A stretch of 55,071 nt of DNA from NCBI GenBank assembly GCA_944372455.1, contig CALVZF010000002.1:1-55071 (forward strand), read 5' to 3'. Positions 3,817 through 55,071 of the stretch are shown in pieces. Made by a program: the position numbers and the translations under genes. Position 1 is the stretch's first letter, and the number at the start of each line of letters is the position of its first letter. The notes beneath the pieces are model-generated. The model was given only the letters and a program-made list of their open reading frames with translations, was not told where the DNA came from and did no database searches. The DNA is from an uncultured Bacilli bacterium (GTDB lineage Bacteria; Bacillota_I; Bacilli_A; RF39; UBA660).

Positions 3817-5019
3817 ATGAAGCTAATAAAAAGAACTGATTATTTAGAGAAATTAATAAATACAATGAATACACCAGACATAAAAGTTATAACTGGTGTT
3901 CGTCGTGCTGGTAAATCAAAACTTTTAGAAGAATTCAAAAAATATATTATAAAGAATGACAAAGATTATAATATAATACATATTAATTACAATTTAACTA
4001 AGTATGAGAATATCAATGAATATCATAAATTAATAGAATATGTTGAGAAAAATTATAAAGATGATAAACAAAATTATTTATTAATAGATGAGGTTCAAAT
4101 GTGTGATGGTTTTGAAAAAGCAATTAATAATTTTCACGCTGAAGAAAAATATGATATTTATATTACTGGCTCTAATGCTTTTTTAATGAGTAGTGATTTG
4201 GCTACACTTTTTACTGGAAGAACATTTGAAATAAAAGTTTATCCATTTTCATATAAAGAATATTTAGAATATTATAATAAAGAAAACAATGAAAAAGCAT
4301 TTGATAGTTATGTTTATGAAGGTGGATTATCAGGCTCTTATCTATATAAAGAAAATGATGAAAAATATAATTATGTAAATGATATTTATAATACTCTTAT
4401 AAAAAGAGATATTTGTAATAAATATAAAATAAAAAAAGAACACTTATTAGATATGATTAACGATTTTCTAATGGACAATATATCAAATTTAACATCAGTT
4501 AGAAATATATCTGATTCTTTAACAAATAACAAAGATAAAATCAATCATAAAACAGTTAGTTTATATATAAAATATTTATGTAATGCCTTTTTATTTTATA
4601 AAATAAGAAGATATGATATTCAGGGTAAAAGGTATCTATTATCTCAAGATAAATATTATTTGGTAGATCAATCTTTTAAGTTCTCAAAATTGGGAACAAA
4701 AAATATTAATTATGGAAGAGTGTATGAAAATATAATAGCAATAGAACTGCTTAGAAGAGGATATGAGGTTTATGTTGGAACTTTATACAAAAAAGAAATA
4801 GATTTTGTAGCTACAAAAAGAAATGAAAAAGTTTATATTCAAGTATCAAGTGATATTGGAGATGATTTTGAAAATAAAACATTTAGAAGAGAAGTAGATC
4901 CTTTATTAAAAATAAAAGATGCATATCCTAAAATATTAATTGCTAGAACACATCATGATATGTATACATATGAGGGTATTCAAATAATAGATATTAAAGA
5001 TTGGCTTATTAAAAATTAG
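3817..5019 (+). CDS. AAA-family ATPase with a C-terminal DUF4143-like nuclease-fold domain
   Basis: Walker A-like ITGVRRAGKSKLL and Walker B LLIDEVQ. The C-terminal GYEVYVG..KEIDFV segment is typical of the AAA_14/DUF4143 family. RBS GGAGGA. Confidence 0.7.
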   Translation: MKLIKRTDYLEKLINTMNTPDIKVITGVRRAGKSKLLEEFKKYIIKNDKDYNIIHINYNLTKYENINEYHKLIEYVEKNYKDDKQNYLLIDEVQMCDGFEKAINNFHAEEKYDIYITGSNAFLMSSDLATLFTGRTFEIKVYPFSYKEYLEYYNKENNEKAFDSYVYEGGLSGSYLYKENDEKYNYVNDIYNTLIKRDICNKYKIKKEHLLDMINDFLMDNISNLTSVRNISDSLTNNKDKINHKTVSLYIKYLCNAFLFYKIRRYDIQGKRYLLSQDKYYLVDQSFKFSKLGTKNINYGRVYENIIAIELLRRGYEVYVGTLYKKEIDFVATKRNEKVYIQVSSDIGDDFENKTFRREVDPLLKIKDAYPKILIARTHHDMYTYEGIQIIDIKDWLIKN

Positions 5020-7391: not shown

Positions 7392-8414
7392 TTAACGTTT
7401 TACAAATAAACATTTTACAGTTTGAATACCTCCAATTATAACAAATAATAAAGGTATAATTATCCAAAAACCAAGTGATTTAATTGTTTCAATAAAAGAT
7501 GAAGCAGTTCCATATTGAACTAATATAATTCCTATACCAATTATTAAAAATGCTAATCCCAAATAAGTTCCTATAACATCAATTTTAAATCTATCAAAAG
7601 CACCACGAATATGCAATGCACCTAATACAAAGGCAAGTCCACCTAATGTGAAGAAACCTCCAAAAAATATTAAAAAGTTACTACTGTTTGTTCCTACTAA
7701 AATAGCTTCTTTTGGGTTATCAGGGTTATATTTAACTTTTCTAACACTATTTTTCTCTGGAATACTACCTGTTCCATAATTAGTTGAAACATTATATTTT
7801 TTTCCTTTTACTTCATATACATATGATAATTTATAGGTTACTCCATCCCTATCACGATTATAAATTTCATAATCATTAAAATATCCATTCGTTGTAAGAT
7901 AATCTTTAGAAATTTTACTCAATCTGTAAGTATCTTTTATTCCAATAACCAAAAGTGTAATTCCAATTATTAAAACTATTGAAATTAAAAATACAGAAAT
8001 TATTATTTTAAAATTAAAATTAAAATTTAATTTCTTATTTTTTGGGATACTTTTTTTATTTATACCAAATAATGATTTTCTAACTATACTAATTCCTGCT
8101 ATCCAAAAAGGAATAGAAAATAATAAATATAAATACAATTCCTTTTTAATGCTATAATAGGAGACAAAAAATAAAAATCCAAACCAAAATAATAAGAATC
8201 CACAAATATATAATTTCTTAAAAAAATTTGCAAATTTTTCTTTTTCTAAGATTAAACTTATATTTTGCAAAACTATTGAAATTCCACAAATTATAAAAGG
8301 AATAAAAACTATTTTAAATATTATATTATTATTTTTAAATAGTAAAGCTATAAGTATAAAGGTCATTAGTATTGCATATATTAATCTACTTATAAAAATA
8401 CTTTTATTTTTCAT
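7392..8414 (-). CDS. Membrane protein with a central DUF3592-like domain
   Basis: Multiple TM helices flank GVTYKLSYVYEVKGKKYNVSTNYGTGSIPEKNSVRKVKYNPDNPKEAIL, a DUF3592-type beta domain. RBS GGGAGGA. Confidence 0.55.
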   Translation of the reverse strand: MKNKSIFISRLIYAILMTFILIALLFKNNNIIFKIVFIPFIICGISIVLQNISLILEKEKFANFFKKLYICGFLLFWFGFLFFVSYYSIKKELYLYLLFSIPFWIAGISIVRKSLFGINKKSIPKNKKLNFNFNFKIIISVFLISIVLIIGITLLVIGIKDTYRLSKISKDYLTTNGYFNDYEIYNRDRDGVTYKLSYVYEVKGKKYNVSTNYGTGSIPEKNSVRKVKYNPDNPKEAILVGTNSSNFLIFFGGFFTLGGLAFVLGALHIRGAFDRFKIDVIGTYLGLAFLIIGIGIILVQYGTASSFIETIKSLGFWIIIPLLFVIIGGIQTVKCLFVKR

Positions 8415-8534
8415 AAAATTCCTCCCAAATTTTGATAATCTAAAACAATTATAACAATATTTATAATTAATTTCTACTGATGCAATATAATATACTAAAT
8501 TAGTGTTATAATAAATTTGATTTTATTATTAGAA

Positions 8535-9332
8535 ATGGGGGTATTTAGTTTGAAATATGAAGATTTTATAAATTGGTCAAATTACCGTGAAACACTACCA
8601 ATGATAAAAGAAAATTTAATTGCTTTCAAAGTAATCCAAGAATATTTATCAAATAGTTTTAATCATAAATATAATATTAACAATGCTCCAAATTATGTAT
8701 TAGAATTGCTTTATAACTATTCTTTAATTAGTGATGATGTAAATAAACAAATTATAAATAAAATATTAACTAATTATAATTTTAATTATTCTATATCCAT
8801 TCATAACGCTATATATTCTTTATTAAATTTAGAAGAATCTAATCTAATTGCCCCTCTATCTTGGCCTGGAATAGAAAATATAGATTACAAAGAAAATAGT
8901 TATTATACTTTAAATACTACTTTAGGAACTATAAAGGTTTTTAAAGCAAGTAAAATTTTTTCAAAAACTCGTTCTTCAATTATTTTTGCAAAAAAGAAAT
9001 TAATTGGAGAATGTTATGCTAGAACTTACGATTTTATAAAACAAAACAAAGAATATAATGCAATTATATCATATATGCCTAATTTTTTTTATGGGAGACA
9101 CTATCACGCCTATATAGAAAATAATAAAGAAGTTATTGATATTGCAGCAAACGCATATTATAATTCTAAAAGTTTTTCAAATAAAACTCTTTGTGGAAAT
9201 ATAATAACTAAATTATCATATGAAAAGATAGAAGAAGAATTTGGGAAAATAATAAATAAAATTCCAGAATTTAAAAAGGAAGATAAGTTGCATATTCTTG
9301 CTTTATATTATGATCACAAAATGAACAACTAA
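8535..9332 (+). CDS. Hypothetical protein
   Basis: Long ORF with no motif I recognise. The start is uncertain: ATG 8535, or TTG 8550 which follows GGGGG. Confidence 0.4.
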   Translation: MGVFSLKYEDFINWSNYRETLPMIKENLIAFKVIQEYLSNSFNHKYNINNAPNYVLELLYNYSLISDDVNKQIINKILTNYNFNYSISIHNAIYSLLNLEESNLIAPLSWPGIENIDYKENSYYTLNTTLGTIKVFKASKIFSKTRSSIIFAKKKLIGECYARTYDFIKQNKEYNAIISYMPNFFYGRHYHAYIENNKEVIDIAANAYYNSKSFSNKTLCGNIITKLSYEKIEEEFGKIINKIPEFKKEDKLHILALYYDHKMNN

Positions 9333-9334
9333 GT

Positions 9335-9512
9335 CTTCCTTTACTCTAACTTCATCCATTAATTCCATAATTTTCTTCTAATTCTTTTTTAGCTTTTAAC
9401 AAAGTAGACTTTGTTTTATTACAATATTATAATTATTTTTAGCAAATGCTTTTGCTATTCCAAAGCCTATACCTCTACCTCCCCCAGTAATTAAAACAAC
9501 TTTTTTATTCAT
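9335..9512 (-). pseudogene. Truncated and frameshifted short-chain dehydrogenase/reductase (SDR) remnant
   Basis: From ATG 9512 the sequence reads MNKKVVLITGGGRGIGFGIAKAFAKNNYNIVIKQSLLC*. This is the TGxxxGxG Rossmann N-terminus, stopped after 38 codons. A shifted frame continues AKKELEENYGING*. There is no room for the remaining ~200 aa. Confidence 0.6.
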
Positions 9513-14420: not shown

Positions 14421-14600
14421 ATGGTTAAATACAAAGTTAATTTAAAGTTTAAAGAAAGCGGAAAATCTTTAAATGAAATAATAACTGAAGTATTAAAACT
14501 TGAAATAATAAAGCAATTTATGAAGACTTGCAATAATTTGAAAGTAGAGCTACCATGTAATCGTACTCATTATTCCCAAAATGGAAGGAGTTATAATTGA
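14421..14600 (+). CDS. Small protein (59 aa) translationally coupled to the serine recombinase; candidate accessory, regulator or directionality factor
   Basis: GGGGGT lies 10 nt before ATG 14421. The product is MVKYKVNLKFKESGKSLNEIITEVLKLEIIKQF.... The TGA stop (14598-14600) overlaps the recombinase ATG (14600-14602). Confidence 0.45.
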   Translation: MVKYKVNLKFKESGKSLNEIITEVLKLEIIKQFMKTCNNLKVELPCNRTHYSQNGRSYN

Positions 14601-16165
14601 TGGTTGGGAATAATAGTTTTAAAGTAGGATTATATATAAGATTATCAAGAGATGATGGAAATATTGAATCAGATAGTATTATTAGTCAAAGAAGTTTATT
14701 AAATCAATATGTTAAAGAAAATAATTATGTAATAGTAGATGAATATGTAGATGATGGATTTTCTGGAACTAATTTTGATAGACCAGCTTTTAAAAGAATG
14801 ATTAAAGATATTGAAATGGGTAAAATCAATATGATAATAACAAAAGATATGTCAAGATTAGGCAGAGATTATATAGGTACTGGTGAATTAATTGAAAAGT
14901 ATTTTCCAAATAATAATATTAGGTATATTGCAATTAACGATGGAATAGATACTTTTATTGATAATACAAATAATGATATTGCACCATTTAAAGCAATTAT
15001 GAATGATATGTATGCTAAAGATATTTCTAAAAAAATCAAAAGTAGTCTTCATTCAAGAATGAAAGATGGATTATATGTATCTGGTAGATGCTCTTTTGGT
15101 TATATGAAAGATCCAAATAATAAAAATCATTTAGTTGTAAATGAAGAACAAGCAGAAATTATTAAATTAATATTTGATTTAGCACTTAAAGGTAATACTT
15201 ACCACTATATAGCACAATATCTTACCGAAAGAAAAATTAAAACTCCGGCATCTTATTATAATTATGTTTGGAATACTAAATGTATAAATGCAAATTGTAT
15301 TTCACAAGAATATGGAGTATGGGTAGATACCACTATAAAAGCAATTCTTACTAATCCAATATATGTAGGAGATACAGTTCAAGGTAAGACTAAAAAGATT
15401 AATTATAAATTGAAAAAAACAGTTAAAAATAAGCCCAATGATTTTATAATAGTAGAAAATACGCATGAAGCAATCATAGATAGAGATACTTTTAATTATG
15501 TTCAAACACTTTTACCAAAAAATGTTAAAAGACCAGAGAAAAAAAGATTTTACCTACTTGATGGACTTTTATATTGTGGAGATTGCAAGCATCGTATAAC
15601 TGTTAGGTATCAAACTAAAACTGGTAAAAGTTATACTACTTGTAATTATTATAGAACATATTCAAAGTATCATGTATGTACAACTCATACAAATAACTAT
15701 GAAACATTAGAAAACGTTGTTTTAGATAATATCAGAGAAGTGTGTAAAAGTTATTTAGATAAGAGTAAGATAAAAGATTCTATTGGTAATATAGAGTTTG
15801 AAGACAATAGTTTAAAGATTAAAAAGCAAATTGAAAGTTTGGAACTTACTAATAATAAATTAACTGAAAGTCTAGATAAAACATATATGGATAGATTAAA
15901 GGGAATAATTGATGAAGAACAATATATAAGAATAAGTGAAAACCTAAAGCAAGAAATAGAAAGTAATAAATCAAGCATTGATAATCTCAAGAATGAACAA
16001 ATAGAAGAAAATAAAATAGACAATAAACAAATAGAAAAATATATAAATGAATTTTTATCATTAAATAATCTAACTAGAGAATTAATAATTAATTTAGTTG
16101 AGAAGATCTACATCTATCAAGATAAACGGGTAGATATTATATTTATATTTAAAAATGCTACATAA
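14600..16165 (+). CDS. Large serine recombinase (resolvase catalytic domain, recombinase domain, zinc ribbon and coiled coil)
   Basis: RBS GGAAGGAG. Motifs: VGLYIRLSRDDG..SDSIISQRSLL (catalytic Ser region), DDGFSGTNFDRPAFKRMI, ITKDMSRLGRDY, Cys cluster CGDCKHR..C..C, and a C-terminal heptad-rich segment. Confidence 0.9.
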   Translation: MVGNNSFKVGLYIRLSRDDGNIESDSIISQRSLLNQYVKENNYVIVDEYVDDGFSGTNFDRPAFKRMIKDIEMGKINMIITKDMSRLGRDYIGTGELIEKYFPNNNIRYIAINDGIDTFIDNTNNDIAPFKAIMNDMYAKDISKKIKSSLHSRMKDGLYVSGRCSFGYMKDPNNKNHLVVNEEQAEIIKLIFDLALKGNTYHYIAQYLTERKIKTPASYYNYVWNTKCINANCISQEYGVWVDTTIKAILTNPIYVGDTVQGKTKKINYKLKKTVKNKPNDFIIVENTHEAIIDRDTFNYVQTLLPKNVKRPEKKRFYLLDGLLYCGDCKHRITVRYQTKTGKSYTTCNYYRTYSKYHVCTTHTNNYETLENVVLDNIREVCKSYLDKSKIKDSIGNIEFEDNSLKIKKQIESLELTNNKLTESLDKTYMDRLKGIIDEEQYIRISENLKQEIESNKSSIDNLKNEQIEENKIDNKQIEKYINEFLSLNNLTRELIINLVEKIYIYQDKRVDIIFIFKNAT

Positions 16166-27209: not shown

Positions 27210-27752
27210 TTATTGATTAGCATTTACTGTTATTTTTCCTTTTAAAGATTTATTTTGAAGTTCATCTTGTTTAATTCCAGTTTCTTCTATCCAAACGTAA
27301 AAAGTATAATCTTTATATGTATTAGCTGATATTGAAATATTATCTTTAAGTTTAATCGCACTAGAAACGTTAAGAAAAGATCCAACAGCTATTTCATTAT
27401 CATCTTCATATAAAGCCCATTTAAAATCAGAAGTTTTTAATTCCTCGCTAATAGATTCTATATTAAAATTAATAGTAGCTGTAAAATCTGTATCACCAGT
27501 ATTTTTAACAGTAAATGGAAGCGCAGTAGCTTTTTCTTTCATTTCAACGGTATTTATAGGGACAATATTAGTAGCTCTTAATATACCGTTGTTAGCTACT
27601 TCAACCTCAAAAGAAGCTGTATTTATTGTTTGCGTTGAAGTATTACTTTTCGCACTAAAATATGCATAAGCTCTTTGAATTCCAAATACTAGTAACAAAA
27701 GAATTAAAACAAAAAATATTTTCTTATCAGTATCAATTTTCGCTTCTACCAT
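27210..27752 (-). CDS. Small secreted protein with a TasA/camelysin-type (SipW-class-like) signal region; paralog of the N-terminal part of 1..947
   Basis: KKIFFVLILLLLVFGIQRAYAYFSAKSNTSTQTINTASFEV resembles the GGTFAYFSD signal/N-terminus of TasA and CalY. A beta-rich body follows, with the shared blocks KNTGD, FKWALY, YTFYVWIEET and GKITV. Confidence 0.6.
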   Translation of the reverse strand: MVEAKIDTDKKIFFVLILLLLVFGIQRAYAYFSAKSNTSTQTINTASFEVEVANNGILRATNIVPINTVEMKEKATALPFTVKNTGDTDFTATINFNIESISEELKTSDFKWALYEDDNEIAVGSFLNVSSAIKLKDNISISANTYKDYTFYVWIEETGIKQDELQNKSLKGKITVNANQ

Positions 27753-27831
27753 TTAATATTCCCCTATTCTATTATTAATTTTAACATTCTTTCAAATTTA
27801 TTTCAATAAATTTAATTTTATTTTACAAACG

Positions 27832-27868
27832 AAAAGAAGTTTTTAAAATAACTCATAAAAACTTCTTT
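27832..27868 (-). terminator. Intrinsic terminator after tadC
   Basis: On the reverse strand, AAAGAAGTTTTT pairs with AAAAACTTCTTT around a loop and is followed by a T-rich tail. Confidence 0.55.
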
Positions 27869-27870
27869 AT

Positions 27871-28581
27871 TTATCCAGTAATAATTGTGACAATAATAGG
27901 TCCTAAAACAATTAATAACATTAGTGGTATAAAAAAGATAACTGATAAAATACTAATTTTAATTGGAAGTTTACCTATTTGTCCTCTAATACTTTGAATT
28001 CTTTTATCTGCTAAAAAATCAATTTGATTATACATTGTATCAATAATATTACCACCAAAAATATTAGTTTGACTAATATTTAAAATAATATTGTTAATAT
28101 TATCAGATGGTATTCTTTTTCTCATGTCATCTAAAGCTTCATCTAAACTTTTACTGTAATTCATTTCATTTAAAGTTTTTTTGAATTCGTTAGATAACTC
28201 ACTATCAATATTATCACAAGTAATTTCTAAAGCACTTTTTAAATCTCTACCCGTTTCAACAGATAAAGTTAAAACTTCAAAAAAGTTTACTGCTTCAGCT
28301 TCAAGCTTGCTAATTCGCTTTTTAATTCTATAATCAATTACTATATAATAAATTCCCAAGTAATAAAGTACACTCATAAGAGGAGCATAAATATAACCAT
28401 AATCGGGAACTAAATAAAGTAATACAAAAAATAATATTATTGTAGTAATAAGTCTAATATTTAAAAATACTATAGGATCAATTTTATTATATATACCTAA
28501 CATTTCTACTTTACTCTTAGTTTTTTCAATGGACTTTTTAGTATATACTTTACGCGCTAAAGGAAATTCTTTTCTCATCAT
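27871..28581 (-). CDS. tadC: TadC-like platform protein (single T2SS-F domain)
   Basis: A T2SSF-type helical domain (FFEVLTLSVETGRDLKSALE...SLDEALDDM) between TM segments. ATGA overlap with tadB. Confidence 0.7.
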   Translation of the reverse strand: MMRKEFPLARKVYTKKSIEKTKSKVEMLGIYNKIDPIVFLNIRLITTIILFFVLLYLVPDYGYIYAPLMSVLYYLGIYYIVIDYRIKKRISKLEAEAVNFFEVLTLSVETGRDLKSALEITCDNIDSELSNEFKKTLNEMNYSKSLDEALDDMRKRIPSDNINNIILNISQTNIFGGNIIDTMYNQIDFLADKRIQSIRGQIGKLPIKISILSVIFFIPLMLLIVLGPIIVTIITG

Positions 28582-29591
28582 TACACCTTAATTCTCATTG
28601 TTTTTTTAACAAAATATACATAAAGTACAAATATAATTATAATTAGTCCAGTGATAACTAGTCCTATTTCTGTAGTATATAAAGGAGTAAAGTAACTTGG
28701 ATTTAAGAAGAAAATTATAAGAAAAATTATAAATGGAGCACTTACTAATACTTTAAACATAATTTCAGAAGAAGCAGTTAAAGTTTTCATTTCGTTTTTT
28801 AATTTTCTTCTATTAAAGAAAGATTTTTCTATTGAAGAAAATACTTTAACAATATCTCCCCCAGTTTTATTTAAAATGGTAAGAGAAGCTGTTATATATT
28901 TAACATCCTCAGTATTAATTCTTTTAGCAAATCTTTCAAAAACAATATCTAATTCTAATCCAAAAGAAATATCAATATACATTCTATTAAATTCTTCACC
29001 TATAGGTCCAGATAACTCATGTTTTACTATTTCAATAGCTTGCATAGTAGTACGTCCACTTTTGAAAGCACTATTCAATATAATTATAGCTTTTAAAATA
29101 TCTTCATCAATTTTTTTCTTTCTTTTATAGTTTTTAAAAAATAAAACGATATCAATGGTAAAGAAGCCACCTACTAAAATTATAAATATTTGTAGTATAC
29201 TAAAATTTCTATATTGTAATACGTTAAATAAAAGAGTAACTAAAAATAGAAAAATAGTTAAAACAAGTTTTGAAGAGACATAATCCATAGGATCTACTAC
29301 ATTTTTTTTGGAATATGGAATATATTTATTATATTTAGAAGCTATTTTTTTAAGAAAATAAGAATGGTTAAATATTTTATTTAAAGCTTTAATTAATTTA
29401 TTATATAAATTTATTCCTTTATCAAAAAAAGATTCAACATTATTATTTAAGGGTTCAACAGAATATCTTCCAATTCGCTTTTCTAAGTTTGCAGCATGCC
29501 TAAATAGTAATACTTGTATTAAAATTATTATAAGTATTACTATTATTATTATCTGCAATATAAATAAAGGGATATTAATGTTATTTCCCAT
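28581..29591 (-). CDS. tadB: TadB-like platform protein (single T2SS-F domain)
   Basis: ILNSAFKSGRTTMQAIEIV..GPIGEEF...FERFAKRI with flanking TM helices. ATG 29591 follows AGGTGA, and the GTG at 29600 lies within the RBS. Confidence 0.7.
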   Translation of the reverse strand: MGNNINIPLFILQIIIIVILIIILIQVLLFRHAANLEKRIGRYSVEPLNNNVESFFDKGINLYNKLIKALNKIFNHSYFLKKIASKYNKYIPYSKKNVVDPMDYVSSKLVLTIFLFLVTLLFNVLQYRNFSILQIFIILVGGFFTIDIVLFFKNYKRKKKIDEDILKAIIILNSAFKSGRTTMQAIEIVKHELSGPIGEEFNRMYIDISFGLELDIVFERFAKRINTEDVKYITASLTILNKTGGDIVKVFSSIEKSFFNRRKLKNEMKTLTASSEIMFKVLVSAPFIIFLIIFFLNPSYFTPLYTTEIGLVITGLIIIIFVLYVYFVKKTMRIKV

Positions 29592-29600
29592 AAGTATCAC

Positions 29601-30929
29601 CTACTTACCAAAAATATCTTTTAAGTTTTTGATTCCTTTTGAAGTAATTTTTTCATATACTTTTGGAATATAATTATAAAGAATAAACTCTCCATCTACT
29701 TCTCCGTTTGAAGTAAGACCTTTTTGACGGAATGCAAAGATTTCTTGAAGTTTTAAAACTCCATTTTTAATTTCAGTAATCTCGCTAATAGAAGTTATTT
29801 TTCTTCTACCATCTCCAAGTCTTTCAATATGTACTACTAAATCAATTGCATTAAATATATATTCTCTAATCGCACTTACTGGTATATCTAATCCTGCCAT
29901 TAATACCATTGATTCTAATCTATTTAAAGCATCTATTGGAGAATTAGCGTGCATTGTAGTTAATGAACCATCATGACCAGTATTCATAGCTTGAAGCATA
30001 TCAAAAGCTTCTTTTCCTCTTACTTCTCCTACAATTATTCTATCTGGTCTCATTCTAAGAGAGTTAATTACTAAATCTCTAATAGTAATTTCTCCTTGAT
30101 TTTCATAGTTTTCTGGACGAGTTTCAAGACTAATAACATGATTTTGTTCCAGTTTTAATTCAGCAGCATCTTCAATTGTGATTATTCTTTGATCATCTGG
30201 AATAAAACTAGATAAAATATTTAGAAGTGTAGTTTTACCAGCACCAGTTCCTCCACTAACTATTATATTTAAATTAGCTTCTACGCAAGCTTCTAAAAAT
30301 CTAGCCATATATGGAGTTAAGGTACCACTACGTAAATAATCATCAATACTAGTCATGTTTTTTCTAAATTTACGAATAGTTAAAACTGGACCTTTTAAAG
30401 ATAATGGTGGAATAATTGCATTAATTCTAGAGCCATCTGGTAGTCTTGAATCTACCATTGGATTTGAAGCATCAATCGTTCTACCAAGAGGTTGAACCAT
30501 TCTTTGTATAGTTCTTAAAATATGATCATTATTAATAAAAGAAACCGAATCATCTTTAACTACTTTCCCATTAATTTCAATATATATTTCATTTGGTCCA
30601 TTTACCATTATTTCAGTAATATTCCCATCTTCTAGTAACTCAGTAATTGGTCCATAACCATTAATTTCATTTTCAATTAAATTGTAAATATGGGCACGTG
30701 CTAAATTAGATAGATCGTATCCTTCCAATGTTTTATCTATTTCATCATTAATATAATCTTTTAAAATTTTATCTTTGGGAATTTTATCATCAATAATATT
30801 TTGAATAATTTGATTTCTCAAACTATCAAGTAAAACTTTGTTTGGAAAAACTTCATAATCAGATAAAATACTTATTTTATTTTGTTTAGGCTTTATATCA
30901 AAAGCTTCTGTTAAAGTTTTTTTAGGCAT
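29601..30929 (-). CDS. cpaF: CpaF/TadA-family secretion ATPase
   Basis: Walker A GGTGAGKTTLLN, Asp box IITIEDAAEL, Walker B RIIVGEVRG, His box TGHDGSLTTMHAN. Confidence 0.9.
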   Translation of the reverse strand: MPKKTLTEAFDIKPKQNKISILSDYEVFPNKVLLDSLRNQIIQNIIDDKIPKDKILKDYINDEIDKTLEGYDLSNLARAHIYNLIENEINGYGPITELLEDGNITEIMVNGPNEIYIEINGKVVKDDSVSFINNDHILRTIQRMVQPLGRTIDASNPMVDSRLPDGSRINAIIPPLSLKGPVLTIRKFRKNMTSIDDYLRSGTLTPYMARFLEACVEANLNIIVSGGTGAGKTTLLNILSSFIPDDQRIITIEDAAELKLEQNHVISLETRPENYENQGEITIRDLVINSLRMRPDRIIVGEVRGKEAFDMLQAMNTGHDGSLTTMHANSPIDALNRLESMVLMAGLDIPVSAIREYIFNAIDLVVHIERLGDGRRKITSISEITEIKNGVLKLQEIFAFRQKGLTSNGEVDGEFILYNYIPKVYEKITSKGIKNLKDIFGK

Positions 30930-31699
30930 TATTTCACCTTCTTATCTTTTATTAGGTCAAGTGCCATATTTTTAAAATTTTGAAAATCTTTTCTTTTGGC
31001 TTTTTGAATTTTTTTATCTAATAGTAAAATTTTTCCATTAATTGTATAATTATCTATATCTTTAATATAAAAATTTTTAGAAATAGTATAATCAATATTA
31101 GAGCCAATTACGGTTTTAATATCAAATGTAGTAAAGTAATCTTTTCCAGTATCTCTAGAATTATTGTACAATATTTTATAGTTATTAATTTGATTATCAT
31201 TAAAAATAGAAATTATTGATTTAGTGTTTTTAAGATCTACTGGATCATTAGTTACTACAAACAAAGTATTATAAGCACTATCCATAATAGTAAGATTTAT
31301 TTCAGTTAAAATATGGGTAGTATCTATTAAAATCACTTCATATTTACTTTCTACATTGTATAAAAGTAAATCAATATATTTAGCTTCTACTTTCATGGCT
31401 TGTCTTGGGTCTTTAGGTGCGCATATTACATCAATACCTTCAATGTAATTATATATATAATCATCAATATGCATAAATCTATTATTCATCATGTCATCAA
31501 CTACATTATAAACAGTCTTTTTATTTTTTAAATTTAAAGCAAGAGCGAGTGCTCCACCATATAGATCTAAATCTATTATTAAAACTTTTTTACCTAATAA
31601 GTGATAAGTAGCAGCAAGATTAAGCAATACTGTAGTTTTTCCTACTCCACCTTTTGTAGAAGTTATACAAATTGTTTTGGCTTTTTTAATTTTAGGCAT
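30929..31699 (-). CDS. ParA/MinD-type ATPase (CpaE/TadZ-like)
   Basis: Deviant Walker A TSTKGGVGKTT followed by IIDLDLYGG. Confidence 0.75.
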   Translation of the reverse strand: MPKIKKAKTICITSTKGGVGKTTVLLNLAATYHLLGKKVLIIDLDLYGGALALALNLKNKKTVYNVVDDMMNNRFMHIDDYIYNYIEGIDVICAPKDPRQAMKVEAKYIDLLLYNVESKYEVILIDTTHILTEINLTIMDSAYNTLFVVTNDPVDLKNTKSIISIFNDNQINNYKILYNNSRDTGKDYFTTFDIKTVIGSNIDYTISKNFYIKDIDNYTINGKILLLDKKIQKAKRKDFQNFKNMALDLIKDKKVK

Positions 31700-31710
31700 G
31701 TAATCACCTT

Positions 31711-32094
31711 CTAACCCTTTTTTAATTCTTTTTTATTATCTAATATTGTACCTTCATACTTAGATACAATTTTATATTCTTTTATTCCTATTATTTTTCC
31801 AAAAGTACTTTCTATATTTTTATGAAAATTAATATTAATTTGATTAGTACCAATTTTAATATTATCAATAATTATTTTATCATCATTTTTAAGTATTAAC
31901 TCTTTTATTTCACTTTCTAAATTCTTATTTTCAAGTTTTTCTAATGATAAAGAAATAACCATCTTATTAATTTCATCTAATTTATTTTTATTTTGATACA
32001 TAGTAGTTATATCTATTACAGTAGCCATAATAATTATTAATAATGGTAAAAATACTACAAACACTATTAAAGTTTGACCTTTATTATTTATCAT
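31711..32094 (-). CDS. TadE/TadG-like pseudopilin-type protein
   Basis: The N-terminus MINNKGQTLIVFVVFLPLLIIIMATVIDI fits the TadE/G-like N-terminal pattern (G then hydrophobic, ..P.L.....D). Confidence 0.55.
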   Translation of the reverse strand: MINNKGQTLIVFVVFLPLLIIIMATVIDITTMYQNKNKLDEINKMVISLSLEKLENKNLESEIKELILKNDDKIIIDNIKIGTNQININFHKNIESTFGKIIGIKEYKIVSKYEGTILDNKKELKKG

Positions 32095-32431
32095 ATACTA
32101 CCCTACTCACCTTTATCTTGTATGGACTATCTAATAACAAATTTAATCCAGGAGTTATGATATCTACTGAAGTGAATAGTCTTACCTCTTTATACTTACC
32201 ATTAGTAACTATTCTATAAGTAACTTTCTTACTAGTATCTTGATTTATAAACGAAATAATTTCTTCTTCTGTTTCATTATTTTGTATCATATTAATAACA
32301 TCATTTAATTTACTTTCAAGCTTACTTTTGTTATATATTATTACTCCGAAATCAATAGTGGCAAAAAGTATCATAATTAGTACTGGTAAAACAATAACAA
32401 ATTCTACTAAGGCTTGACCTTTTTGTTTCAC
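32084..32431 (-). CDS. TadE-like (pseudo)pilin with a class III signal, KG|QALVEF
   Basis: GTG 32431 lies 10 nt after AGGGG and gives MKQKG|QALVEFVIVLPVLIMILFATIDFG, with Gly at -1 and Glu at +5. The track start at 32440 has no spacing from the RBS. Confidence 0.6.
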   Translation of the reverse strand: MKQKGQALVEFVIVLPVLIMILFATIDFGVIIYNKSKLESKLNDVINMIQNNETEEEIISFINQDTSKKVTYRIVTNGKYKEVRLFTSVDIITPGLNLLLDSPYKIKVSRVVYDK

Positions 32432-32489
32432 TAATATCACGCCCCTATTATATCTAGTATATCAGAAAATTTGAGATTTTTAAATATTT

Positions 32490-33251
32490 TTATACAAGAT
32501 AATTTATTAAATCTAATAATGATACACTAGTAAATTTTAAAAGTAGTAAAATAATTGCAGTTATAGAAAGGAATGGTCCAAAAGGGACAATATTATCTTT
32601 TTTTCTTATCATTGTAATAATAGCATAAGGAAGCGCAATAAAAGATGCCAAAAATATTATTACAATAGCTGTTTTAATATGAAAAACCAAGCCAAAAAAG
32701 AAAAATAATTTTATATCTCCCCCACCTAATGATTCAGTTTTAAAAATAAAATCTCCAATCCATTTTATTAAATACATAAAACAAAAACAAAGAACGCCAT
32801 AAAATATAGCTAATAAAAATGAGAAAACTCCATTTAATATTAAAGTTTCTATAAGTATTAGAATGCTTCCACATATTAAAACTTCATCTGAAATGATCAT
32901 GTATTCAATATCGCTAATTATTACTATTATTAAAATTGAAACAAACGTAATAGGTATTATTACGTTTACACTTAATCCAAAAACTATATAACACAAACTA
33001 AATAGAATTCCTGTTAATAATTCATATATTGGATATTTAATTGATATATGTGTTTTACAATTTCTACATTTTCCCAATTGAATTAGATATGAAATAACCG
33101 GGATAAGCTCATACCATTTTAATTTTTTATTACACTTCTCACAATGAGATGGAGGATTAATAATAGATTTTCCTTCTGGAAGTCTTAAAGCAACTACTTG
33201 AAAGAAAGATCCAAAAACTAACCCAAATATAAAGAAAATTAAACAAACCAT
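32490..33251 (-). CDS. pilD: Prepilin peptidase (A24 family, PilD/ComC-like, with an N-terminal Cys4 domain)
   Basis: Motifs CEKCNKKLKWYELIPVISYL..GKCRNCK, and the conserved Asp regions ISD and GGGDIKLF. ATG 33251 follows GGGGG. Confidence 0.85.
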   Translation of the reverse strand: MVCLIFFIFGLVFGSFFQVVALRLPEGKSIINPPSHCEKCNKKLKWYELIPVISYLIQLGKCRNCKTHISIKYPIYELLTGILFSLCYIVFGLSVNVIIPITFVSILIIVIISDIEYMIISDEVLICGSILILIETLILNGVFSFLLAIFYGVLCFCFMYLIKWIGDFIFKTESLGGGDIKLFFFFGLVFHIKTAIVIIFLASFIALPYAIITMIRKKDNIVPFGPFLSITAIILLLLKFTSVSLLDLINYLV

Positions 33252-33261
33252 AAAATACCCC

Positions 33262-34917
33262 CTAAATTTGATTATATAAACTAAACATTGGTATAACAAT
33301 TGCAAGTAGTAAACCACCAACTAGAAAAGCTAAAAAAGCAATCATTACTGGTTCAATTAAACTTTTCATTTGAGTAACTAAAGCTGCATGTTGTTCTTGA
33401 TAGAAAACTGAAACTTTATTCATCATTTTACCTAGTTCTCCGGTTCTTTCTCCTGTTAAAAGCATTTCGTAAGCTACATCTGGAAATGCCCAATGATCTT
33501 TAAATGAAGCAGAAATACTTTCACCCTTAGAAAGATTAGTAATAGTATCGTATATAATCATTTTATAAATCTCATTATTAGTTATCTTACTTAAAATTTC
33601 CATACTATCAGTTATAAAAACATTATGATTTAAAAGTGAACCAAAAGTTTTAGTAAAAGTAGTAATTTCGTTATATATAATTATTTTACCAATTATAGGT
33701 AATTTCATCGTTATATATTGAACCATAGTTCTAAATAATTTAATCTTTTTATAAAGATAAACTAGTAAAACAATAATTCCCGCTATTCCTAAGAAAATAT
33801 ACAAATAATACTTACCTAAGAAATTACTAAGATTGATTATAAATTGAGTGATAGCTGGTATTTCTGCTCCTATTCCACTATATATATCTACAAATTGTGG
33901 AACTACATAAAGCATTATAAAAGTAACGATTGCGATTGACATAACAAATACAATAGAAGGATACATCATCGCACTTATCATTTGCTTTCTTGTTTTTTCT
34001 AACGAATCATAATAATCAGCCATATCATCTAAAGTTTCTGGTAATTCTCCTGTCATTTCTGCGGTTTTAATCATATTAATTAATAACCTTGGGAAAGCTT
34101 TACCTTGTTTATCTAATGCATTAGAAAACGATTCTCCCATTACTAATTCGTAAACAATTGATTGCATTACTTTTTTCTTATTAGCCTTTTTTTCTTGATT
34201 TGAAAAAATTCTAAGTGAGTCAATTAGTGAAATTCCAGCTCTTAAATATGTTGATAATTGAGTTAAAAAGAATACTAATTCTTTTTTAGAATATTTAGGT
34301 GCATTAATACTGCTACTTCCATATAGAAAGTTAATCCATTTAGAGGTTTTAATGGAATAAACCTCATAGCCTTCATTTATAAGGAATGAATGTACATCTA
34401 CTTTTGAAAAAGCGTCAAATTTACCTTTAATATATTTTCCATCTGCATCTTTAGCTTCATATATATACGTTTGTTTTTTATCACTTTTAGCAGTATCTTC
34501 TTCTCCAAAATTCATTAACATAACTTCTTTTTTATTTTCTTGATGATTTTTCTTGTTTTTAGCAATACCCCCTATAATACTACCATTCATTTTTTTATAT
34601 TTTTCTTTTTCTCGTTTTTCTGCTAAACGTGTTTTTTCTTTCGCTTTTTTAGCTTTATCTTTTAAAGTCATTTTTTCAATTAATTCTTTAGTTTCATTAT
34701 TTAAATTGTTTTCACCTTTAATTACTTTAGTTTTTTTAGGTTTGTTATTAACTTTCTTTTTAGGCTTTCTTATAAAAATTTTCTTCAAAATAAAGATAAT
34801 ACCTACAAAAAAGTATTTAATAAGACTAAATAAAAAATAAAAAACTGCAGCTATACCTAGGAAAAAGTTTTTAAATATTGCCACAATAAAACTACCAATT
34901 GCTTTTAATATTTTCAT
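33262..34917 (-). CDS. PilC/GspF-family platform protein (two T2SS-F domains) with an unusual ~150-aa TM plus Lys-rich N-terminal extension
   Basis: YIYEAKDADGKYIKGKFDAFSKVDVHSFLINEGYEVYSI is a PilC N-terminal domain. The two F domains carry ...QLSTYLRAGISLIDSL... and ...TFGSLLNHNVFITDSMEIL.... ATG 34917 follows AGGAGAGGGG. Confidence 0.8.
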   Translation of the reverse strand: MKILKAIGSFIVAIFKNFFLGIAAVFYFLFSLIKYFFVGIIFILKKIFIRKPKKKVNNKPKKTKVIKGENNLNNETKELIEKMTLKDKAKKAKEKTRLAEKREKEKYKKMNGSIIGGIAKNKKNHQENKKEVMLMNFGEEDTAKSDKKQTYIYEAKDADGKYIKGKFDAFSKVDVHSFLINEGYEVYSIKTSKWINFLYGSSSINAPKYSKKELVFFLTQLSTYLRAGISLIDSLRIFSNQEKKANKKKVMQSIVYELVMGESFSNALDKQGKAFPRLLINMIKTAEMTGELPETLDDMADYYDSLEKTRKQMISAMMYPSIVFVMSIAIVTFIMLYVVPQFVDIYSGIGAEIPAITQFIINLSNFLGKYYLYIFLGIAGIIVLLVYLYKKIKLFRTMVQYITMKLPIIGKIIIYNEITTFTKTFGSLLNHNVFITDSMEILSKITNNEIYKMIIYDTITNLSKGESISASFKDHWAFPDVAYEMLLTGERTGELGKMMNKVSVFYQEQHAALVTQMKSLIEPVMIAFLAFLVGGLLLAIVIPMFSLYNQI

Positions 34918-35040: not shown

Positions 35041-35397
35041 ATGTTTAATAGAGGAATTTCTCCGTACGGAGCTTATGGTCTTGGTGGTGCGGTAAAACAA
35101 GGAATAAACTGGTCTAGCCTTTTAACTAATACACAAAAAACTTTGGGAATTATTAATCAAGCAATACCAGCTTTTTATCAAGTAAAACCTATTTTTAATA
35201 ATATGAAAACTATGTTTAGATTGGTAAATGAGATAAATAAAGATGATAAAAAAACTGATTCTACAATACAAGAGGCTAATTATACTAGTACTAATACAAG
35301 TACAAATGTAACTGAAAAAGCTACTACTAAAGTTAATCAAGAACAATATTATAGCGATAACTCTTCTTATAACGATGGACCAAATTTCTTTTTATAA
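35041..35397 (+). CDS. Hypothetical protein, possibly VrrA/YqfQ-like
   Basis: INWSSLLTNTQKTLGIINQAIPAFYQVKPIFNNMKTMFRLV resembles my recollection of the conserved YqfQ core. The tail is low-complexity and T/N/S-rich. Confidence 0.4.
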   Translation: MFNRGISPYGAYGLGGAVKQGINWSSLLTNTQKTLGIINQAIPAFYQVKPIFNNMKTMFRLVNEINKDDKKTDSTIQEANYTSTNTSTNVTEKATTKVNQEQYYSDNSSYNDGPNFFL

Positions 35398-54223: not shown

Positions 54224-55071
54224 TTATCTAGCATAATTATTGGTTTTTAACCAGTTAGTAATAAAGTTTATTTCTTCAGCACTACCAGCAGTATGATCAA
54301 GAGTAGCTTTCCAATCAATTAATGCTTGTGTAAGGGCTTCTTGAGCTACTGTATTAAATTCATTAACTTTAATATTTGAAAGTACTGAATCTAATTTATC
54401 ATTTGCATCATTTACATTAGTATTAATAGTATTAATTGTTGTTTCAATAGTTGCTAATTTATTACTAATGAAACCAAGACGTCCGAATAATGTATCATCA
54501 GTTGTATCAGTTTTTAAACCAACTAATTTTTGAAGTGCTATAACATTTGTACTAATAGTCTCAGTATTTGATTTAATAGTAGTTAATCCACCACCAACAC
54601 TTACAAGTTTACTATTAGTAATATTTGTTGCAGTTTTTAAATCAGTAATTCCTGTATCAACTGTATCAAATCTTCCGATAAATTCAGTTCTATCATTATT
54701 TAATCTGTTATTTAAATTGTAAAAACTTGAATACATATCTTGTTTTATTTGAGCTACTTGACTATCTAAATTATCAAATCTATTATTTAATTCTGTCATT
54801 TTATTGTTTAGTTCACTTCTTACAAAACTTTTCATATCAATAAAACGATTTTCTAAAGAACTATTTCCGAATTTGATATTTAAATCATTTAATACATCAA
54901 ATCCATCTGCTAAAGTTGAATCTACATTATCAAATCTTGTAGCAATTAAACTTTGGTTAGTATCCATTGCTAATTCCATTCTTAATAAAGTAGTTGCTAA
55001 AGATGCTTGATTATCATTCATATTTTGGTCAACAATGTTGAATCTTGAATTAATATTTGATTGATTATTAT
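54224..55071 (-). CDS. Partial CDS (runs off the window end): repetitive coiled-coil protein with a recurring [NGST]RFDx[VL]D motif
   Basis: The frame stays open upstream of the track ATG (55021): ..NNQSNINSRFNIVDQN-MNDNQ.. The motif recurs as SRFNIVD, TRFDNVD, NRFIDMK, NRFDNLD, GRFDTVD and GRLGFIS. Confidence 0.55.
   Translation of the reverse strand, partial: NNQSNINSRFNIVDQNMNDNQASLATTLLRMELAMDTNQSLIATRFDNVDSTLADGFDVLNDLNIKFGNSSLENRFIDMKSFVRSELNNKMTELNNRFDNLDSQVAQIKQDMYSSFYNLNNRLNNDRTEFIGRFDTVDTGITDLKTATNITNSKLVSVGGGLTTIKSNTETISTNVIALQKLVGLKTDTTDDTLFGRLGFISNKLATIETTINTINTNVNDANDKLDSVLSNIKVNEFNTVAQEALTQALIDWKATLDHTAGSAEEINFITNWLKTNNYAR

Follow-up and report, generated by a model that had tools for sequence, protein, structure and literature searches.

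The stretch of DNA considered here, 55 kb of chromosomal sequence from an uncultured member of the Bacilli (the window, abbreviated W in locus comparisons; ~25% G+C), carries on its minus strand, from 34917 down to 27871, eight co-directional genes for a PilC-like platform protein, a PilD-type prepilin peptidase, two TadE-like proteins, CpaE/TadZ, CpaF, TadB and TadC. We consider it likely that this string is an ordinary Gram-positive-type Tad (type IVc) operon lying beside the pilC-pilD pair of a separate type IV or competence-like pilus, that is, two known machines and not a hybrid one. A first-pass annotation of the same DNA had described a tightly packed string of these eight genes, and the Pfam and NCBIfam profile searches on which the gene identities given below rest bear out every one of its assignments. 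The range it proposed, 27210-34917, covers the eight genes and a ninth besides (27210-27752), which does not belong to the operon, as a probable hairpin terminator and a promoter-like site of its own lie between it and tadC. Intergenic distances within each of the two blocks run from -11 to +11 bp, and the spacer between pilD and the first tadE-like gene measures 58 bp.

When related genomes are compared, the Tad module and pilC-pilD prove to be independently conserved units. A CpaF search, taken at one genome per species, gave 61 metagenome-assembled genomes (MAGs) of uncultured low-GC Bacilli whose CpaF is 63-74% identical to that of the window, and with the sister contigs included the orthologues range from 63 to 86% identity; the 61 MAGs were named by their depositors as Bacilli, Mollicutes/Tenericutes, Erysipelotrichaceae, Clostridium sp. 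CAG:710, Firmicutes bacterium CAG:822 or Ca. Coprosoma. The core order cpaE-cpaF-tadB-tadC is present in 61/61 of these relatives where the contig allows, and two tadE-like genes lie upstream of it in nearly all, but neither pilC nor pilD occurs near the Tad module in any of the 61 (flanks of up to 8.5 kb on the upstream side and 10 kb on the downstream side). The comparison of gene order that the first-pass annotation had proposed as a check thus returns a conserved Tad order, but one without pilC and pilD, and this contradicts its central suggestion that both platform types serve a single CpaF. The other unit, with a yqfQ-like gene divergent from pilC-pilD, is found without Tad genes in more distant relatives (L003-L006 and L091), where it is followed by a two-component system with ABC transporters, by murG-murB-ftsQAZ, or by a recombinase and pgm. 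Near pilC-pilD in L003, L005 and L091 lies comEA-comEC, and comEA-comEC or N-methyl pilin genes are often close to distant yqfQ-pilC-pilD units.

The junction that joins pilC-pilD to the Tad genes is confined to the clade of the window (W, L001/L002, L088, L089, L172 and L175). PilC of the sister species is 65-77% identical to that of the window and PilC of L172 is identical to it, and CpaF is 84-86% identical across L001, L088 and L089. In a neighbour-joining tree of CpaF, W, L089, L088 and L001 form one clade, sister to L016/L020 and nested among lineages in which flp adjoins tadE. Since the window clade is monophyletic and nested in this way, the pilC-pilD-tad junction is a single derived rearrangement that arose in this clade. 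The gene that follows tadC varies among the sister genomes.

The first gene of the Tad block encodes a TadE-like minor pilin of 115 aa (32084-32431, minus strand, like all eight genes; PF07811 TadE, E = 1.5e-12) with the class III signal peptide MKQKG|QALVEF; its start codon, a GTG at 32431, was set by the spacing to the ribosome-binding site (RBS), and the public gene call is likewise 115 aa. The position of this gene is kept in related modules, where it was detected except in a few truncated or divergent loci, and a comparison of the protein with PDB sequences returned nothing informative. The second minor pilin, TadF/TadG-N-like (31711-32094; 127 aa, MINNKG|QTLIVF), has no glutamate at +5 and stays under the Pfam cut-offs (the family Tad, 20.8 bits against a cut-off of 22.3; TadE, 15.5 bits), and it has a positional orthologue in nearly all related modules, of which the one in L089 is a weak TadE match. 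There follow a CpaE/TadZ-like ATPase of the ParA/MinD family (30929-31699; AAA_31, 3.7e-16; ParA, 4.7e-13; CbiA), with MinD-type NCBIfam matches and a weak CpaE_hom_Actino match, whose position is kept in all related modules and whose gene overlaps cpaF by 1 bp, and the CpaF/TadA secretion ATPase, the motor of Tad pili (29601-30929; T2SSE, 1.4e-63, 215 bits). This ATPase scores 326 bits against the TadA-family model TIGR03819, 250 against VirB11 and 213 against FlaI, versus 42 for PilB, 50 for GspE and 64 for ComGA (NCBIfam), and it falls in the CpaF/TadA clade, distinct from the PilB/GspE clade. The string ends with two platform proteins of one T2SSF domain each, TadB (28581-29600; 3.4e-10, in a single stretch; 339 aa, or 336 aa in the public gene call, which starts 9 nt downstream) and TadC (27871-28581; 6.3e-14), the last gene of the operon and conserved in position. 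Read as a minimal monoderm Tad/type IVc operon with its own promoter and terminator (32431-27871), this block would supply CpaF/TadA as a hexameric motor, TadB and TadC as a split platform, CpaE/TadZ as a ParA-like scaffold or localiser, and two TadE-like minor pilins that would prime or cap the fibre, the major subunit of which would be a Flp pilin of 62-73 aa (G|QALVEY) encoded at an unlinked site.

The upstream block encodes proteins of another kind. The PilC/GspF-type platform protein (33262-34917; two T2SSF domains, 1.2e-50, 171 bits) has more than 7500 homologues and scores 286 bits against GspF, 245 against PilC and 148 against ComGB (NCBIfam), the GspF and PilC scores lying below the equivalog cut-offs. 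The peptidase next to it is of the bifunctional PilD/ComC type (32490-33251; A24_N_bact, 9.6e-35, 119 bits; Peptidase_A24, 2.4e-13, 51 bits; 253 aa in the public gene call), with an N-terminal Zn-finger/methyltransferase-type domain in which both CxxC pairs are present (HCEKC, KCRNC). Divergent from pilC lies a yqfQ-like gene (35041-35397, plus strand; Pfam YqfQ, 31.4 bits), a conserved neighbour of the pilC-pilD unit, and the same divergent yqfQ/pilC/pilD layout recurs in L001, L003, L005, L089, L090, L091 and L175.

The partners that a PilC-PilD pair would require are found in the sister genomes. As the first-pass annotation had stated, the window itself holds no PilB-type ATPase (tblastn). 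A GspE/PilB-type ATPase of 519-530 aa lies one or two genes past tadC in L001, L088 and L175, on the opposite strand and with yebC between, and reaches 468 bits with the GspE model, 462 with PilB and 272 with ComGA (cut-off 300); the genes next to it in L175 encode a ComGC-like pilin of 106 aa (MVNKKG|FTLIEV) and two more pilin-like proteins. The window's own contig, of 82,109 bp, was found by means of its PriA and matches the window at 100% identity through a 5-kb overlap; just after smc it encodes an N_methyl pilin of 82 aa (MKKRLNKKG|FTLVELLAV), roughly 6.3 kb outside the window on the high-coordinate side (L178 2576-2824). The PilB-type ATPases and ComGC-like pilin of the sister genomes and the N-methyl pilin of the window's contig therefore place PilC and PilD in a dispersed type IVa/Com-like pilus system, not in the Tad machine. 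In this arrangement pilC-pilD (34917-32490) would be one part of such a pilus, with its PilB-type ATPase and its N-methyl (G|FTLVE) pilins encoded elsewhere. A conventional flp gene and a PilB partner close by but outside the window, or a separate com remnant, were the findings that the first-pass annotation had named as fatal to a hybrid; homology to the sister genomes supplies most of this, and what it does not supply is flp or pilB in the genome of the window.

Signals in the DNA would also fit the separate transcription of the two blocks. A promoter-like element with an extended -10 box (TTTAAA-17-TGATATACT; 32456-32484, minus strand) was located in the pilD-tadE spacer by consensus scan and by conservation, in that the TGATATAAT/TGATATACT extended -10 box and the ATAATAGGGG RBS downstream of it are kept in W, L001, L088 and L089 and the remaining spacer varies; it is probable that the Tad operon has its own promoter here. 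Immediately behind the stop codon of tadC the sequence reads as an AT-rich hairpin followed by a T-rich tract (AAAGAAGTTTTTA...TAAAAACTTCTTT, then TCGTTTG; 27831-27868, minus strand), a probable intrinsic terminator of the Tad operon, and comparable hairpins follow tadC in L001 and L089. With so few G-C pairs in its stem, the hairpin of the window escapes the consensus scanner.

The opposite reading would be that the string encodes one machine, in which PilC, TadB and TadC all form the platform for CpaF and PilD matures the two TadE-like proteins as the sole subunits of the filament. The common direction of the eight genes with no terminator between pilD and tadE, the retention of the junction in all five sister contigs, and the absence of flp and pilB from the ~64 kb read of this genome would all suit such a machine. 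We nevertheless regard it as highly improbable, given that none of the 61 relatives with the same module has pilC or pilD nearby, that other relatives have pilC-pilD without Tad genes, that sisters with the identical junction retain a PilB-type ATPase and one of them ComGC-like pilins as well, that an N-methyl pilin lies on the window's contig, and that a conserved promoter-like element stands between the blocks. In the type IV filament superfamily, moreover, PilC-type platforms are known to pair with PilB/GspE-type rather than CpaF-type ATPases (PMC6668835).

The major subunit of the Tad fibre calls for separate consideration. In two regular-expression scans of all open reading frames (ORFs) of at least 30 aa in the window, Flp-like or other class III signal peptides were found in the two TadE-like proteins alone, and a family-specific Flp hidden Markov model (HMM), run on all six frames of the window from stop to stop, returned only the N-termini of these two proteins, at E = 0.01 or weaker. 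The lack of Flp reported in the first-pass annotation, which had itself suggested a six-frame HMM search, is thereby confirmed for the window, and the same HMM found no flp in 9 kb more of the same contig past the window end. Flp does belong to the module family, and flp was present in the fetched DNA of 25 of the 54 informative MAG loci (related genomes with enough upstream sequence): in 24 it immediately precedes tadE, and in L055 it lies 3.4 kb ahead of it. These pilins are 62-73 aa long, carry the motif G|QALVEY and reach 32.3 bits against Pfam Flp_Fap PF04964 (cut-off 32.2); a protein search with Flp gave more than 4000 matches at E<=0.001, three of them named Flp by their source (two 'Flp family type IVb pilin', one 'Flp pilus assembly pilin Flp'). 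The earlier claim that the TadE-like proteins are the only substrates does not survive, with an N-methyl pilin on the same contig and a bona fide Flp in the module family.

Linkage between flp and the Tad genes was lost several times in the CpaF tree. When metagenomes were scanned with the Flp profile, 44 loci had Tad genes as well, 27 had an orphan flp and 9 were uninformative, so that orphans make up 27/71 of the informative loci; orphan here means that no Tad gene lies in the fetched flanks of up to 8 kb, and about a third sit on short contigs of 1.5-5 kb, which give a narrower view. Orphan flp genes occur in housekeeping contexts such as rpoZ-flp-M16 peptidase, DUF192/flp, ruvB-flp and xseB-flp-alaS. 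Synteny of these loci with the window was considered and rejected, as a PriA homologue alone is shared (52% identity) and gene order differs. The absence of flp from the window is thus real but uninformative about the genome, and a flp gene at an unlinked site would be the simplest reading.

A Tad variant independent of Flp could also be imagined, in which flp has been lost and the TadE-like protein (115 aa) or borrowed small N-methyl pilins are polymerised into a short pilus or pseudopilus. Such a variant could point to the intact set of six Tad genes in the 29 of 54 relatives and the five clade contigs (W, L001, L088, L089 and L175) that show no flp in the fetched DNA, to the N-methyl pilin genes interleaved with Tad genes in L013, L024, L027, L043, L050, L055 and L056, and to the 82-aa N-methyl pilin of Flp-like size on the window's contig. 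It seems unlikely to us, however, since orphan flp genes are common enough (27/71 loci) that absence from a view of 20-60 kb says little, since the TadE-like protein has equal length and motif in flp-linked and flp-less lineages with no sign of a major-pilin role, and since TadE and TadF are minor pilins in the Tad systems that have been studied (PMC6916266). That the flp-less module is instead a non-functional remnant on its way to pseudogenisation, as the disappearance of flp from its ancestral position and the rearrangement of the genes downstream of tadC among clade members might suggest, is very hard to credit when W, L001, L088, L089, L172 and L175 each have the six genes intact, when identity to the L001 orthologues is 84% for CpaF, 75% for TadC, 73% for CpaE and 66% for TadE, and when signal-peptide motifs and Walker-type domains are preserved.

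If the window does hold two adjacent machines, the prepilin peptidase would be what links them, the Tad modules having no TadV and PilD cleaving both pilin sets. A phmmer search with PilD against six-frame translations found no second A24 peptidase in the window or near the 61 related Tad modules; no dedicated TadV-type peptidase (an A24 domain without the N-terminal domain) was seen, the PilD type alone being present. An ORF of ~160 aa upstream of the Tad genes in the distant Thermoactinomycetaceae loci L073 and L081 is matched weakly (E=0.005 and 0.06) and may encode a TadV-like peptidase. Published system models admit TadV as a 'loner' or exchangeable component (PMC6668835), and its absence therefore does not exclude membership in the Tad class. 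The leaders to be cleaved are nearly alike, M-N-K-K-G|QALVEF/Y in TadE and Flp and M-x-K-K-G|FTLVE in the N-methyl pilins, and it is established that type IV filament systems can share a peptidase (Denise et al., 2019; PMC6668835). The near-identity of the leaders, the lack of a second A24 peptidase nearby and the known cases of sharing together argue that PilD probably processes both pilin sets, and a shared PilD may be the reason why the pilD-tad linkage persisted once formed. A stronger version, in which the Tad machine depends on type IVa/Com-like parts (PilD, and TadE-like or small N-methyl pilins in place of Flp) and the linkage was selected for that reason, strikes us as distinctly unlikely; if true, this dependence would make the string a genuine functional chimera of type IVa and type IVc filaments.

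Several observations weigh against the reading of two adjacent machines. Neither flp nor pilB was found in the ~64 kb of this genome that was read (the window and 9 kb more of the same contig), and 29 of the 54 informative relatives have no flp in the fetched locus. None of the usual neighbours of orphan flp (rpoZ, DUF192, M16 peptidase, ruvB, obg and gmk) is present in the window, and the absence of flp there therefore says nothing about those sites. Promoter-like matches in the window are near chance for AT-rich DNA (76 found, 67.5 expected), so that it is the conservation of the element in the pilD-tadE spacer, and not the match, that counts as evidence for a promoter. No terminator was found after pilD in the consensus scan of the window, and read-through co-transcription of all eight genes is therefore possible. 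The junction has persisted in the clade despite the divergence of PilC to 65-77% identity, which is compatible with some selective advantage of linkage. Finally, Flp of Pseudomonas aeruginosa is processed by a dedicated peptidase, FppA, and not by PilD, and cross-processing by PilD is therefore something that we infer here.

Both blocks have close counterparts among known systems. Minimal monoderm type IVc (Tad) systems comprise a pilin plus a pair of minor pilins, a peptidase (encoded elsewhere in Bifidobacterium breve), TadB/TadC and TadA/TadZ, and no secretin (Pelicic, 2019; PMC6916266). Like tad2003 of B. breve and the tad locus of Micrococcus luteus, the window has two TadE/TadF-type pilins, TadZ/CpaE, TadA/CpaF, TadB and TadC and no secretin, Rcp or TadD; as in B. 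breve, the peptidase lies outside the core operon (PMC6916266), and the window's relatives have a Flp with G|xxxxEY. The window clade differs from these two loci in that flp appears to be unlinked and the minor pilins come first in the gene order, that the nearest peptidase is of the PilD type with an N-terminal domain and not a short TadV, and that Flp of the family has a C-terminal tail of ~25 aa with two invariant cysteines. Tad loci with other gene orders are on record in the Erysipelotrichales (Bulleidia extructa; PMC12786226). With the Gram-positive type IVa/ComG pilus the other block shares a PilC of two T2SSF domains and a PilD of A24_N_bact and A24 domains, to which the sister genomes add a GspE/PilB/ComGA-like ATPase and a 106-aa ComGC-like pilin, and L003, L005 and L091 add comEA-comEC close to pilC-pilD. 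Unlike those of a comG operon, however, the genes here are dispersed, PilC is nearer to GspF/PilC than to ComGB (286 vs 148 bits) and has a long N-terminal extension, and the sister ATPase scores just under the ComGA cut-off (272 vs 300 bits). In systems known to share a peptidase, such as the type IVa pilus and type II secretion system served by PilD/XcpA, or the MSH loci, which have no peptidase of their own, the situation resembles that of Tad modules with no nearby A24 peptidase and a PilD as the only one seen (PMC6668835); what differs is that sharing between Tad and a PilD-type enzyme is a deduction here.

An apparent "hybrid" operon that is in fact a lineage-specific juxtaposition of two known type IV filament modules is worth recognising as such, as this spares wet-lab work on a false lead. 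Tad modules are a colonisation factor in Bifidobacterium, and the minimal module described here is carried by a large group of uncultured, small-genome, low-GC gut Bacilli. With flp often unlinked in this group, a detection tool that expects the pilin within the cluster will count too few of these systems, and modules seemingly without TadV in genomes with a PilD-type enzyme allow the sharing of a peptidase by type IVa and type IVc filaments to be put to the test.

Further features of the pilus proteins emerged from the comparisons. Canonical PilC/GspF proteins are ~400 aa long; the PilC-like protein of the window has an N-terminal extension of ~150 aa (34470-34917), made of two hydrophobic helices and then a Lys/Glu-rich low-complexity stretch, and in the PilC homologues P0002-P0120 this extension measures 150-500 aa and pilC invariably diverges from a yqfQ-like gene. 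TadB of roughly half the related modules (ORF lengths of 488-527 aa; L010, L012, L018, L028-L062 and others) begins with an extracellular Ig-like domain of ~170 aa that precedes the first membrane helix and carries the motif Y.IDKE.P.I; it is absent from the window's TadB (339 aa). The gap of ~500 bp between cpaF and tadB in about half of the relatives was considered as the site of a pilin gene and proved to be this N-terminal extension of TadB. Flp pilins are usually described as bare helices, and those of this family have a conserved C-terminal tail of ~25 aa in which two cysteines are invariant (C42 and C60 of the reference) and a GGYL(K/Q)D motif occurs (L007-L067 and L092-L171, alignment A1). 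A DUF192 (COG1430) gene lies divergently and immediately upstream of flp in many genomes (L012 7715-8059 and L114 7589-7942, both on the minus strand; L131, L138, L164-L169 and many more), and it stays with flp whether flp is linked to Tad genes or orphan.

The N-methyl pilins also deserve mention. The 82-aa protein beyond the window end is unusually short for a type IVa/ComGC-type pilin and near Flp in size. In at least seven related species N-methyl (G|FTLVE-type) pilin-like genes are interleaved with the Tad module or abut it (L013 9360-10549; L024 8089-8544; L027 11330-11839; L043 9781-10347; L050 2840-4095), and two of the ORFs are very large, one of 1074 aa in L055, between flp (4595-4807) and tadE (8205), and one of 591 aa in L056, upstream of tadE. 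Interleaving of this sort hints at cross-talk between the two pilin classes.

The ninth gene, beyond tadC, encodes a secreted TasA/camelysin/AbpX-like protein of 180 aa with the signal peptide ...QRAYA|YFSA (27210-27752, minus strand) and forms a separate unit, served by a promoter-like site with TG (27806-27778) and an RBS of its own. The homologue in L001 reaches 23.2 bits against Peptidase_M73 (cut-off 22.5), and the profile of the family matches AbpX in the PDB (9sj2_C, E=0.0016). As a Tad substrate or member of the operon this protein was rejected on account of the terminator and separate promoter, its unconserved position, and a signal peptide of the Sec/SipW type and not of class III. 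The family comprises TasA/camelysin/AbpX-like secreted fibre or biomatrix proteins, with members in L001 at 7521-8090 and 8256-9476, and in L026 (6578-8390) and L031 (5906-8407 and 14018-15409) three or four tandem paralogues occupy exactly the place upstream of tadE that flp has in other genomes.

Elsewhere the window has housekeeping genes, among them leuS, frr, gyrA/parC, priA, ldh and a [FeFe] hydrogenase. About 12 kb from the operon a large serine recombinase of 522 aa (Resolvase, Recombinase and Zn_ribbon_recom domains; 14597-16165, plus strand) may mark an integrated element, and no connection between it and the pilus genes was seen. At the other end an Asn/Thr-rich repeat protein gene (54224-55071, minus strand) continues past the window's high-coordinate end; its call on the longer contig has 301 aa and a faint match to DUF1664.

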